A DNA stretch of 64,000 nucleotides from the UHGV virus genome UHGV-0351052. The stretch is one strand, 5' to 3'. The position numbers and the translations under genes were made by a program. Origin of the DNA: a virus. Under the pieces are notes generated by a model. That model worked only from the letters and a program-made list of their open reading frames with translations. It made no database searches and was not told the origin of the DNA. Positions 5,821 to 59,821 of the stretch are shown here, in pieces; the first letter of the stretch is position 1; every line of letters starts with the position of its first letter.

Positions 5821-5985
5821 TTACTCTTCTTTTTCTTTAGATTCCTCTTTTTTCTTTTTAGGAATCTGTTCAGGACCTTTATTTACTACAGCACCTGATG
5901 TTGTTCCAGTAGAGATATTTTCAGGATTACCACCTGAATCTCCAGCAACCATATCTTCTTTGATAAATTCTTTATATGTTTTCAT
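5821..5985 (-). CDS. 61.1-like small protein (54 aa) with capsid-targeting-like N-terminus MKTYKEFI
   Basis: Hand-translated MKTYKEFIKEDMVAGDSGGNPENISTGTTSGAVVNKGPEQIPKKKKEESKEKEE; not in ORF track (<60 aa). Confidence 0.45.
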   Translation of the reverse strand: MKTYKEFIKEDMVAGDSGGNPENISTGTTSGAVVNKGPEQIPKKKKEESKEKEE

Positions 5986-10500: not shown

Positions 10501-11349
10501 TTAATCAACTGCTATTGGATGAATAGCATTAAACTTATGAAATGCTTCTGATTTTTCTTTACGCGAAACACACATGCGAAGAACCTTTAATGGCTCGTCT
10601 TCTTCACCCAACGATTTTCGTTTTTCAATATTCGATGTTTTCCAACGAGCTTGCTCTGGAAACTCTCTATTGATTTGCTCAAGCGCTCTATTATGTTTAG
10701 AATTACTACGAATTGAACTACACCCACCGGGAGCGTGTGATTTTCCAGATACAACTAGATATTTGAACAAGGCCAAATGCGGATAACCTTGATTAATTAA
10801 ATTGAGAAATGCATACATATCTTCGCATAAATCAATTTTTCCATACCCAATTTGTTCTGTCGTAAGTTTTCCGAGGTCATACCATGTATTCGTGAATCCA
10901 TATGAGTTTTCACGATAATTACCCCAAGATGAAGTAATTTTAAAAATTGGTAGACGAGCATGACCGTGATAATACCCGCAATCCATGGCATCCTCAACGT
11001 ATTGAATCAATTCATAGAACTGTTCACGAGTTAATTGATTAATTTTATCTACGCGCCGTTTATCGTCTCTCTTTCGTATTGAACTCATACGAATAGTAGT
11101 ATCATCATCAATCATCCAGATTCGTTGACCTGCATACATATCAGTAATTGCTTTACGAGTACCGGCAATTCCGTTTACATCATCAGGAATAGTTACAATT
11201 TTAGCTCTAGACCCATAAGCATCATAATAAGCTTTTTCTTCGTGTTCACGCACTACAATATGGGGCTCATAATCAGTCGGAAACATATTAAGGGCAGAAA
11301 CTGCCCCTACACGCTGATAACTTGGAATTACGAATTGAATCATTTCCAC
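10501..11349 (-). CDS. putative glycosyltransferase (DxD motif) at the beta-gt locus; not T4 beta-glucosyltransferase
   Basis: 282 aa; RIWMIDDDTT motif; occupies T4 beta-gt position between uvsX and 42 but does not resemble T4 beta-gt. Confidence 0.5.
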   Translation of the reverse strand: MEMIQFVIPSYQRVGAVSALNMFPTDYEPHIVVREHEEKAYYDAYGSRAKIVTIPDDVNGIAGTRKAITDMYAGQRIWMIDDDTTIRMSSIRKRDDKRRVDKINQLTREQFYELIQYVEDAMDCGYYHGHARLPIFKITSSWGNYRENSYGFTNTWYDLGKLTTEQIGYGKIDLCEDMYAFLNLINQGYPHLALFKYLVVSGKSHAPGGCSSIRSNSKHNRALEQINREFPEQARWKTSNIEKRKSLGEEDEPLKVLRMCVSRKEKSEAFHKFNAIHPIAVD

Positions 11350-48764: not shown

Positions 48765-49145
48765 TCAATTAGAAAATAAATTTATCCAAGATTGTTCTTT
48801 AATTAAAAATGGCTCAGAATCATATGCCATTAAACTCTGTGTGATTAGTCCTTTAAAAGGCCCATCAATAAATTCCATGGTAAAATATGGAATTTTATTC
48901 ATTAGCCGTGCATTAGGAGCAGTGCACAAAACTCTGCATCCTTTGAATACACCTTTTTGTAATTTGTATTGCTTGGGATAAAATTCGCTCAAAATGTTAT
49001 TTTTTGCCAAAATTTCAAAATGATTCACCAATTTATTTTTAATAGTTTTTGGCGAAAAATAAAGATATTCGAAAAGCTGAGTGTCTGTCATCATTGCATT
49101 CCGATTACGAAAAACTGTGGACGAGTAATACCACCAATGCAACAT
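48765..49145 (-). CDS. hypothetical protein (126 aa), possibly 3-prime part of a split gene
   Basis: ORF track; overlaps next ORF by 55 nt in another frame. Confidence 0.4.
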
Positions 49146-49678
49146 TTAATATTACAGCAGCAGTGTACAGTGTCAATATGGACACTATAAATCTTATCCA
49201 TATCAGGAGATTTGACAGGCTCATCAATTATATACAAAATTCGCGAAAGCGATAAACCTCTGAACTTGCTTCCTTTATTACCAATAAAACTGCGCACAGA
49301 ATCAGTAAATAAACGAAAACGTATATCATCATTAGAATAACGCGAAAATTCCTTTTTAATATTATCTGCGGAAATTTTAGCGTAAGCTGAAGTATTAGAA
49401 AGAACAATAACTGTTCCACCGTCATACAACCAATTAGCGGCAAAATTAGTTACTGCAGTTGATTTACCGGATTGACGTCCACCATCTATACGAAGTGTGC
49501 AATACTGTTTAAGTAAGTCTTCAAATGGTGGGATATAATCGTTTTTACAAATTTCTTCTACTCTAGCATCAGAATGGTGTGTAAAAGCATTCATCAGGGA
49601 TAGATAAGGACCAGTTAAAAATGTTCTCATTTTGTTCTCTCTAGGTTTGGGCCATTCCATGGCGCATGAATTGTCCAT
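49091..49678 (-). CDS. P-loop NTPase-like protein with terminase-like Walker A (GGRQSGKS) and Walker B (YIIDE); possibly truncated
   Basis: Motifs read from translation; odd Cys-rich C-terminal tail suggests frame disruption. Confidence 0.45.
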   Translation of the reverse strand: MDNSCAMEWPKPRENKMRTFLTGPYLSLMNAFTHHSDARVEEICKNDYIPPFEDLLKQYCTLRIDGGRQSGKSTAVTNFAANWLYDGGTVIVLSNTSAYAKISADNIKKEFSRYSNDDIRFRLFTDSVRSFIGNKGSKFRGLSLSRILYIIDEPVKSPDMDKIYSVHIDTVHCCCNIKCCIGGITRPQFFVIGMQ

Positions 49679-49807: not shown

Positions 49808-50383
49808 TTAATTACCACGGGCCGCATTAGCAACGGCGTAAGCATACTGAACATTAGCGTCCTTAAACGTACCTTTAGAGGTATCTATTTCTGCCTTAAA
49901 GCCGCCTTTAGCCATAACATCGGCAAATTCTTTACGGAAAGCCATTGCATCAAGACCTTTCCATGATGATTTATGCTTGGCAAATTCAAGACCAGCGTAG
50001 TTGACAGCCTTAGCTAATTTATTATCAATAACCCATTTACCAGCTTTAGGCACAAACACCGGGCCTTTCTGTTTGGAGAATAGTTTTAAATTCCAGCGAC
50101 GAAGGTCACCGTCAGCTTTAACAAAAGCTGCGTCCAAGTTACTAGCAACAACATCTTGAATATGGCCAAATTTAAGCCCATCAACTTCAATATTTAGATC
50201 GGTACGCCAGCGAAGTCCTTCCCAAGCGAAGCCTTTAAAGTCGGAAGCCTTTGTAGCTAAGTACCGTTCAATAGGAGCTGTTTTAGGGTCAAAGCCGTTT
50301 CCTCGGTAAGTCCACTCATCTTTATTAATGCCTTTGGCCTTTTCCACAGAAGCTTCGGCGATAAATTCTTTATACGTTTTCAT
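49808..50383 (-). CDS. ipIII: internal protein III (capsid-packaged, CTS leader MKTYKEFIAEA)
   Basis: 191 aa with canonical capsid targeting sequence; matches T4 IPIII. Confidence 0.8.
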   Translation of the reverse strand: MKTYKEFIAEASVEKAKGINKDEWTYRGNGFDPKTAPIERYLATKASDFKGFAWEGLRWRTDLNIEVDGLKFGHIQDVVASNLDAAFVKADGDLRRWNLKLFSKQKGPVFVPKAGKWVIDNKLAKAVNYAGLEFAKHKSSWKGLDAMAFRKEFADVMAKGGFKAEIDTSKGTFKDANVQYAYAVANAARGN

Positions 50384-57824: not shown

Positions 57825-58010
57825 TTATTCACCTTTAGAAATTTTATCCATAACGATAGCGATTAAACCAATTAAAAATGCTACTACAAGTGAAAACACA
57901 TTTTCTGCTGTAGTCAATAATCCGCATATAAATCCAACAAACATTGAAAAACTAAAAGCGGAAGCAGAAATTGCAATAGCAGCATTTCGAATTAATTCAC
58001 AACGTTTCAT
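57825..58010 (-). CDS. hypothetical small membrane protein (61 aa)
   Basis: ORF track; hydrophobic. Confidence 0.5.
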   Translation of the reverse strand: MKRCELIRNAAIAISASAFSFSMFVGFICGLLTTAENVFSLVVAFLIGLIAIVMDKISKGE

Positions 58011-58036
58011 TTTATTCTCCTCAGTAGTTGATAGGG

Positions 58037-58068
58037 TAATAGTATCACAACTAAAACCCTATGTAAAC
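58037..58068 (-). promoter_or_regulatory. T4-type early promoter
   Basis: taatagtatcac -10 region, gtaaac 58063-58068, upstream motif ctttgtgaaattattttaaa identical to site at 58381-58410. Confidence 0.55.
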
Positions 58069-58080
58069 AACTTTGTGAAA

Positions 58081-58338
58081 TTATTTTAAATCTTCTAATC
58101 GTTTCTTCATCTTAGAACCATTTTTAGCAATTTCTCCTGCATCGGAGCATAATGCTAAAAGCGCTTTAACTTTAGTTTGGTCTCCTTTAAAAGATGAAGG
58201 ATCGACTGCAGCAGCAAGTTCTTTAATACGAGAGAAAAGACGTTCAGCTTCAGCTAAAGCCATTCCAAGCTTTACTTCCATACCGTGGGAAGATTCAGTA
58301 ATAGTAGTTTTTGTAGCAAACTCTTTGAAAGTTTTCAT
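58081..58338 (-). CDS. IP-locus internal protein with capsid targeting sequence (MKTFKEFATK), distinct from T4 IPI
   Basis: 85-aa ORF immediately upstream of 57B (the ipI position in T4); N-terminal leader resembles CTS of ipIII; body differs from T4 IPI as remembered. Confidence 0.55.
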   Translation of the reverse strand: MKTFKEFATKTTITESSHGMEVKLGMALAEAERLFSRIKELAAAVDPSSFKGDQTKVKALLALCSDAGEIAKNGSKMKKRLEDLK

Positions 58339-58366
58339 TTTATTTTCCTAATTAATTTTGATGAGG

Positions 58367-58398
58367 TAATAGTATCACTACCTCGTCAGTATGTAAAC
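58367..58398 (-). promoter_or_regulatory. T4-type early promoter for IP-locus gene
   Basis: taatagtatcac and gtaaac 58393-58398. Confidence 0.55.
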
Positions 58399-58410
58399 AA
58401 CTTTGTGAAA

Positions 58411-59095
<685 letters not shown>

Positions 59096-59096
<1 letters not shown>

Positions 59097-59821
59097 TATA
59101 GTACCTTTAGTGTATTTTTAATTTTAGAAAAAAGTTCTTCAAGAGAACCATCGTTTGTAATTACTAAATCGCCATCACGAATTGGCAATCCAGCTTCTGT
59201 AATATGTGTATCATTGGATTTTTGACCAGGACGAACTACATGAATTACTGTAGCACCCATCGCCCTAGCCGCATCCATTTCATGGTCTTGACGAGTATCA
59301 GGAACGATATAATAATCATAACCTGAGTTAAATTTATCAAGATAATCTAAAGCAAATAATTTTACCCAGTACATGCGATCGAAGTTATTAACGATCAAAT
59401 CCGTACCTAGGGCTTGCATCAGACGACGGACTGACCATTGATCTTCAATATTATTTATAACGTCAATAATCTTGTTAAATGCTACGGAATTAACTGATTC
59501 TTGTCCTTCGTCATCAAAAACAAACACACCTTTAATTGGGCTTTTACCATTAAGATAGCAAAATGCTTGTTCCATAATCGTGATTACTTCTGATTTAGTC
59601 AGATTTAAATTAGTCTCACGATCATAGTCAATTCCTTCAAACTCTTTACGAGTTAAGCAAGGATAGTCAGTGTTTTCTGCAAATACGCCCCATGCATAAG
59701 CCAATGCATCCTTAATAGGACCAGCAAGTTGGTATTTAACTGCAGAATAATTGCTCATAATAAAATCAGCAGTAGTATCTTTTCCACTACGCTTTACACC
59801 GCTTAAAAAGATTAGTTTCAT
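59096..59821 (-). CDS. 1: deoxynucleoside monophosphate kinase gp1
   Basis: Start at MKLIFLSGVKRSGKDT gives 241 aa (T4 gp1 length); P-loop. Confidence 0.9.

Follow-up and report, generated by a model that had tools for sequence, protein, structure and literature searches.

Ip5 of a T2/T6-like phage: an interchangeable internal-protein cassette, probably injected against host defence, and a lead from uropathogenic E. coli CFT073

The gene ip5 lies at 58081..58338 on the minus strand of the window, that is, the whole stretch of 64,000 nucleotides (64 kb) of phage DNA analysed here. In the list of open reading frames it has an ATG start and 85 codons plus stop, and its protein begins MKTFKEFATKTTITESSHGMEV. 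The DNA is that of a T2/T6-like Tequatrovirus, whose set of an α-glucosyltransferase and a β-α-glucosyltransferase is of the T2/T6 type (96.8% identity to the Bas37 enzyme). In the order of transcription, the minus strand carries gene 1 (dNMP kinase), 57A (58866..59096, minus strand; Pfam GP57), 57B (58411..58866, minus strand), ip5, a trna.4-like gene (57825..58010, minus strand), trna.3, trna.2, seven tRNAs and segB. A preliminary description of this DNA had assigned the reading frame to the slot of T4 ipI, and indeed it is a real minus-strand gene of 85 amino acids situated between 57B and trna.4, where T4 carries ipI. The same description had put it upstream of 57B; in the direction of transcription it is instead downstream.

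The internal-protein (IP) genes of T-even phages have two hypervariable loci, 57B–trna.4 and e–denV, with ip5 belonging to the former. The conserved left boundary of this locus is 57B, which encodes an anti-CBASS Acb1 phosphodiesterase (Pfam PF23474 Acb1, E 2.6e-60), so that two counter-defence genes, 57B and ip5, stand side by side. The conserved right boundary is the trna.4-like gene, coding for a membrane protein of 61 amino acids (phrog_1692) that is annotated Trna.4 in PP01, RB32 and T4. The second locus, adjoining the lysozyme gene e, contains ipIII at 49808..50383 (minus strand; phrog_5341 'internal virion protein', E 2.5e-116), which starts with MKTYKEFIAEA, as had been described. The internal-protein complement of the window phage includes ipIII, with neither ipII nor ip6. 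In the whole window the start motif MK.[YFW].[DE][FLIV] occurs in just three reading frames. An Rfam scan returned only the seven downstream tRNAs, with no RNA element within or beside ip5.

The gene is an already known member of the interchangeable internal-protein cassettes of T-even phages and not a discovery. Specifically, its product shows 100% identity to the Ip5 protein of RB15 (GenBank Z35082, 'RB15 DNA for Ip5, Ip9, Ip7, Ip8'), a record that, from its title and later citations, is to be assigned to Repoila et al. 1994, a study of genomic polymorphism among T-even phages. It matches phrog_3499 'internal head protein' over residues 1-85 of 85 (E 1.2e-49) and is identical to the translated bas37_0261 of phage Bas37 (MZ501089). 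The surrounding DNA is about 97% identical to that of Shfl2, RB32/RB33, RB14, T6 and PP01, and the syntenic gene of 258 nt is annotated in several of these genomes: 'Ip5 internal head protein' in PP01, 'internal head protein' in Shfl2, and 'Ip5 … similar to RB15 T6 T2 RB70 Ip5 … replaces ipI' in RB32. In RB15, T2, T6, RB70, RB32 and PP01, Ip5 agrees with the window protein in length and in its slot between 57B and trna.4, with differences in what follows: ip9, ip7 and ip8 come after ip5 in RB15, ip6 in Bas37, T6 and PST, while in the window ip5 is alone.

The mature domain of Ip5 is found at an identity of at least 90% in 269 phage records, 232 of which reach at least 99%; by comparison, the mature domain of T4 IPI is present at 90% or more in 280 records, and Ip5 is therefore roughly as common as IPI among sequenced genomes. 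Such near-identity is unusually static for a protein engaged in an arms race and counts against an anti-defence reading. A paralog with about 54% identity to the mature domain is carried by 228 further records. This Ip5-like protein (of the RB69 ORF127c type, in Mosigvirus and some Tequatrovirus) is 48-54% identical across both predicted helices, and its leader, like that of Ip5, contains a cleavage site. It differs in that it occupies the other IP locus in Mosigvirus, between lysozyme e and denV, and in its 94 amino acids, both the loop and the C-terminal tail being longer. HMMER, run exhaustively against 1.84 billion cluster representatives, retrieved only 3 clusters, so that the family is restricted to T-even phages and no deeper alignment could be made; a word-indexed homolog search gave only five near-identical clusters, and neither Pfam nor NCBIfam contained an above-threshold match.

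The first 15 codons (MKTFKEFATKTTITE; 58294..58338, minus strand) specify a capsid-targeting sequence with a predicted prohead-protease cut after Glu15, and align with the 19-residue leader of T4 IPI (MKTFKEFATKT----TITE in Ip5 against MKTFKEFTSTTTPVSTITE). Residues 1-7, MKTFKEF, fit the MKT(Y/F)(K/Q)EF pattern, and the same kind of start is shared by T4 IPI, the IPIII of the window, Ip6, Ip7 and Ip9. In IPIII, Ip6, Ip7 and Ip9 the leader is of the canonical ten-residue form and closes with Glu10, a residue that both IPI and Ip5 lack, having a later ITE site instead; the Ip5 leader is therefore a shortened form of the IPI leader. In other words, the capsid-targeting type that had been recognised by resemblance to ipIII is borne out, but the nearest relative is the T4 IPI leader (MKTFKEF…TITE, no Glu10) and not that of ipIII. 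The proposed I-x-E site suited to the prohead protease is also there: on sequence evidence, the (I/L)-x-E motif corresponds to I13-T14-E15, aligned with I17-T18-E19 of T4 IPI. Since T4 IPI has 95 amino acids and its mature form, IPI*, has 76 residues (PMC3012670), the cut in IPI follows the ITE of residues 17-19; as TITE is retained at residues 12-15 of Ip5, a cut after Glu15 is predicted, which would leave a mature protein of 70 amino acids. Leader and (I/L)-x-E site are retained in the Ip5 orthologs (81-99% identity) as well as in the 48-54% paralog at the other IP locus of Mosigvirus.

Beyond the leader the resemblance to IPI ends. BLASTP against T4 IPI aligns residues 1-22 only, without any similarity of the mature domains; the possibility that Ip5 is a close homolog of T4 IPI is thereby ruled out, and the impression that the body of the protein is unlike IPI was correct. 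At the DNA level, window and T4 are near-identical 5′ of the gene, similar in the leader, unrelated in the part coding for the mature protein, and near-identical again from the stop codon onward. Locus, regulatory flanks and leader subtype are hence common to the two genes, and the mature products are alike in size and charge (70 and 76 amino acids, pI 9.2 and 9.0 for Ip5 and IPI*, respectively). They differ in fold: IPI* consists of two β-sheets flanked by helices (PMC3012670), whereas Ip5 is predicted to be an all-helical hairpin.

The predicted mature protein (58084..58293, minus strand; 7.5 kDa) was modelled with AlphaFold2 from a five-sequence alignment, and the resulting model, of only moderate confidence (mean pLDDT 71), shows two antiparallel helices, residues 17-44 and 54-84, joined by a short loop. 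Leader residues 1-12 are disordered (pLDDT below 50). In the two helices the heptad a/d positions are hydrophobic in 7 of 8 and 7 of 9 cases, so that mature Ip5 is predicted to be a small basic antiparallel coiled-coil hairpin. The structure prediction proposed at the outset yielded this hairpin; a profile search of PDB sequences gave nothing above chance level (best E 0.015). Similarly, Foldseek against the PDB and viral predicted structures found nothing at E <= 0.001, the hits being generic hairpins, among them the LSD1 tower and designed ones. As modelled, then, the helical-hairpin fold carries no specific functional information.

A direct repeat of about 92 nt (69 + 25 nt; families D1 and D2) brackets ip5, its two copies being 84% identical and spaced 328-330 nt apart. 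The upstream copy (58333..58426, minus strand) spans the end of 57B, an early promoter (58397 to 58369), a stem-loop, the ribosome-binding site and the ATG of ip5; the downstream copy (58005..58096, minus strand) has the same arrangement, from the end of ip5 through an early promoter (58067 to 58039), a stem-loop and a ribosome-binding site to the ATG of trna.4. According to a promoter scan, both promoters are of the T4 type, TTTACA-17 nt-TACTAT preceded by TG, and the core motif GTTTAC…GATACTAT occurs 4 times in the window, the expected number being 0. The stem-loops have energies of -13 kcal/mol (z -2.3) in the upstream and -19.3 kcal/mol (z -3.3) in the downstream copy. The stems themselves, at 58011..58080 and 58339..58410 (minus strand), differ (GAGGTAGTG…TATTACCTC versus ATAGGGT…ACCCTAT) and both hairpins overlap the -10 box; what is conserved between the repeats is the structure and not the stem sequence.

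This organisation recalls the PeSL cassettes, in which direct repeats with an early promoter and a stem-loop likewise surround a small accessory gene, and T4 homology breaks between the ip5 repeats. Arbiol et al. 2010, who credit Repoila et al. 1994 with the first sighting, regard the IP-locus elements as analogs and not homologs of PeSLs, differing in being based on T4 early promoters and in their weaker, AT-rich stems; Comeau et al. 2014 agree. The upstream repeat region is almost identical to the T4 sequence 5′ of ipI, and homology to T4 resumes at the downstream copy. On these grounds ip5 would be transcribed from its own T4-type early promoter, and its expression late in infection should resemble that of ipI, because the regulatory region almost exactly matches that of T4 ipI. 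A pattern search of the window found no late promoter motif directly 5′ of ip5. The nearest late-promoter-like sequence in that direction, TATAAATA at 59452..59459 (minus strand), lies about 1.1 kb away inside gene 1 and is a possible source of late read-through over 57A-57B-ip5, the eight matches to the pattern in the whole window being not above chance.

The strong early promoter with its TG directly 5′ of the gene, taken together with the distance of the nearest late motif, would also suit a protein newly made in the cytoplasm early in infection, neither packaged nor injected, whose leader is a relic of cassette exchange. We consider this very improbable. Even the 48-54% paralog retains the leader and the cleavage site, T4 ipI has nearly the same upstream sequence and yet its product is packaged at about 360 copies, and the leader alone is sufficient for packaging foreign proteins (PMC3012670). 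Packaging, processing and injection of Ip5 are, by contrast, what the leader, the cleavage site and the regulatory region common with ipI probably indicate.

The idea that a different cargo at this locus has a different host target, put forward in the preliminary description, is the standing hypothesis of the field, explicit in reviews and recent publications. According to the results of Silas et al. 2025, Ip1, Ip2 and Ip3 are inhibitors of GmrSD type IV restriction enzymes, the enzyme being a different one in each case; these authors proposed GmrSD variants as targets of all proteins of both IP loci. In addition, the HIDEN-SEQ preprint (bioRxiv 10.1101/2025.11.20.689424) reports that bas37_0260, identified as Ip6 from its resemblance to the ip6 annotated in VR26, inhibits McrBC of K-12. 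Four internal proteins, Ip1, Ip2, Ip3 and Ip6, thus have known targets, and Ip5 is without one. In the panel of Silas et al. 2025, covering ten ip genes (ip4-10 in the figure legend), no reproducible interaction with additional GmrSD variants emerged, the panel being composed of GmrSD variants active in the laboratory strain, which may not include the clusters CLS_001 or CLS_005. In the searchable literature we found no paper treating Ip5 by name, nor virion proteomics or injection data for it.

Published restriction data narrow the field of candidates. Phages T2 and T6, to which ip5 is native according to the RB32 annotation and the Ip5 records, are restricted by the GmrSDs of CT596, UTI89_C2960, ECOR21 and ECOR17, and these four are therefore not targets of Ip5. 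In particular, T2, which has Ip5 and no IPI, is restricted by the CT596 GmrSD unless IPI* is supplied, so the target of Ip5 differs from that of IPI. RB15 is not restricted by the CT596 GmrSD, and it has Ip9, Ip7 and Ip8 besides Ip5.

A host-specific requirement can be read from the HIDEN-SEQ data on Bas37, where the IP locus has the order 57B (bas37_0262), bas37_0261, bas37_0260, trna.4. Extended Data Table 7 of that preprint lists the transposon-insertion fitness of Bas37 genes on each host against K-12. On K-12 itself bas37_0261 is non-essential, with 18 of 18 TA sites hit. On uropathogenic E. coli CFT073, insertions in it are depleted with a log2FC of -2.09 (17 sites, mean count falling from 263 to 61, adjusted p printed as 0.00000), as opposed to non-significant values of -0.01 on CFE299, -0.01 on CFE303, -0.13 on CFE331 and +0.26 on CFE336. 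The authors do not mention bas37_0261, and its depletion on CFT073 is undiscussed. The K-12 control is one and the same in all five comparisons, so that the specificity for CFT073 does not stem from the control. Polarity on ip6 or trna.4 was considered as a cause and rejected, since insertions in these genes are not depleted on CFT073. The gene identical to ip5 would hence be required for fitness on CFT073 only, a lead that comes from a single unreplicated transposon screen. Taken from published data and cheaply testable, this lead is the useful result of the analysis, the gene itself being long known.

Two further entries of the same table deserve mention. Like those in ip5, insertions in 57B, the gene upstream of it, are depleted on CFT073 (log2FC -1.56, adjusted p 0.003), an effect that may stem from polarity on ip5 or from a separate role of the anti-CBASS protein. 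They are mildly depleted on CFE331 as well; CFE331 has a CBASS according to the HIDEN-SEQ table, and 57B is the anti-CBASS Acb1. Moreover, two hypothetical genes absent from the main text of the preprint, bas37_0239 and bas37_0240, are depleted on CFT073 far more than ip5 (log2FC -3.62 and -6.49).

Ip6 (bas37_0260) is the product of an adjacent cassette in the IP locus of Bas37; like Ip5 it has this kind of leader and is needed only on particular hosts. It differs in its unrelated, acidic mature sequence (precursor pI 5.8) and in the host concerned, Ip6 being needed on K-12 (McrBC) and Ip5 on CFT073.

A small and mildly basic protein (pI 9.2) might, on the other hand, be a generic DNA-associated filler of the head, aiding DNA condensation or ejection with no dedicated host target. 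Its dispensability on K-12 as well as four of the five clinical isolates, the GmrSD panel with no match for Ip5, and a very strongly conserved sequence would all agree with such a function. A need on CFT073 alone does not fit a filler, however; the locus exchanges unrelated cargos behind one leader, and each of the four cargos whose function is known specifically inhibits a type IV restriction enzyme. We therefore regard this explanation as quite unlikely.

The reading that we favour, and hold to be reasonably probable, is that ip5 is an internal-protein cassette whose product is packaged, cut by gp21 and injected, and then acts against a defence particular to certain host strains. Both the precedents and the fitness effect seen on CFT073 alone speak for such an anti-defence role. 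Specifically, the 15-residue leader would bring the precursor of 85 amino acids into the scaffolding core of the prohead, where the prohead protease gp21 would cleave after I-T-E15. The 70-aa mildly basic hairpin would then remain in the head with the DNA and be ejected into the next host, where mature Ip5 most likely binds and neutralises a strain-specific defence, probably, by analogy with Ip1, Ip2, Ip3 and Ip6, a modification-dependent (type IV) restriction enzyme. With regard to the preliminary description, the injected anti-defence cargo with a different target is in keeping with the leader, the ITE site, the locus, the unrelated cargo and the depletion on CFT073 alone, but it is not new, given that the protein is the known Ip5 and the proposal the field's own. 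Internal proteins enter the cell already made, together with the DNA, and disable restriction by the host before phage genes are expressed. The set that a phage carries helps to decide which wild E. coli it infects, and this bears on the choice of T-even phages for therapy.

In CFT073, two intact genes of the GmrSD family flank a type I R-M system at the position where K-12 has mcrBC and mrr. He et al. 2015 listed one of them, c5421, as a GmrSD gene that takes the place of mcrBC in the immigration control region, and in the cluster assignment of Silas et al. C_RS25605 (c5421; NC_004431 5162679..5164772) belongs to CLS_001 and C_RS25630 (5171396..5173048) to CLS_005. The c5421/C_RS25605 gene (NC_004431 about 5162553..5164772) is one uninterrupted reading frame, which RefSeq splits into a truncated pseudogene and a C-terminal gene; the same split annotation recurs in many other E. 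coli genomes. Genes of the C_RS25605 type are present in 1288 and those of the C_RS25630 type in 574 of 5426 complete E. coli genomes (24% and 11%). Being so common, they make a requirement on just one of five uropathogenic isolates harder to explain, and for this reason either of them is rated as a possible, not a likely, target of Ip5.

A more specific form of the preferred reading can nonetheless be put forward tentatively, as a conjecture that we hold at well under even confidence: Ip5 would be an injected inhibitor dedicated to a defence that CFT073 has and that K-12, CFE299, CFE303, CFE331 and CFE336 lack, acting through a hairpin unrelated to IPI*, with C_RS25605 and C_RS25630 as the most attractive candidates. 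If true, this would raise the number of internal proteins with a known target to five, and ip5 and ip6 of Bas37 would be directed at one each of the type IV enzymes that alternate at the same host locus.

The frequency of these GmrSD types, which does not obviously explain a requirement on a single isolate, would sit better with an injected Ip5 directed at a system of CFT073 other than type IV restriction, for example a toxin-antitoxin or an abortive infection system. Further points in this direction are the negative GmrSD panel, the other systems predicted in CFT073 (SanaTA appears in the HIDEN-SEQ table), and the depletion on the same host of the adjoining anti-CBASS gene 57B. Every T-even internal protein of known target, however, inhibits a type IV restriction enzyme, and a pre-made injected protein is best suited against systems that act on entering DNA; such a non-type IV target seems unlikely to us.

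A few other features of the window may be recorded. The phage encodes a T2/T6-type β-α-glucosyltransferase (10501..11349, minus strand) and has no ip6, as ip5 is followed directly by trna.4 (57825..58338). In Bas37, which has the same type of transferase, loss of ip6 leads to sensitivity to McrBC of K-12 (HIDEN-SEQ preprint). Given that Bas37 needs ip6 against McrBC, the window phage, devoid of ip6, might be sensitive to McrBC or otherwise protected.

After ipIII, in the place presumably taken by ipII in T4, the window contains no reading frame with a capsid-targeting leader. Instead, a frame of 195 amino acids (49091..49678, minus strand) is found there, with a P-loop, GGRQSGKST; it belongs to phrog_1488, of unknown function, and weakly matches the ATPase region of the terminase large subunit.

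Lastly, a 54-aa reading frame at 5821..5985 (minus strand), directly upstream of the primase gene 61, starts with the leader-like MKTYKEFIKE and lies outside both IP loci. In the major head protein precursor of Acinetobacter phage 133, residues 56-93 align with residues 1-38 of this frame at 45% identity (pairwise E 8e-12), and we take that stretch of the precursor to span the gp23 maturation cleavage region. Elsewhere in T-even genomes, IP genes are absent according to Arbiol et al. 2010. The 54-aa frame, conserved across about 1400 phage records, corresponds to phrog_1823, of unknown function.
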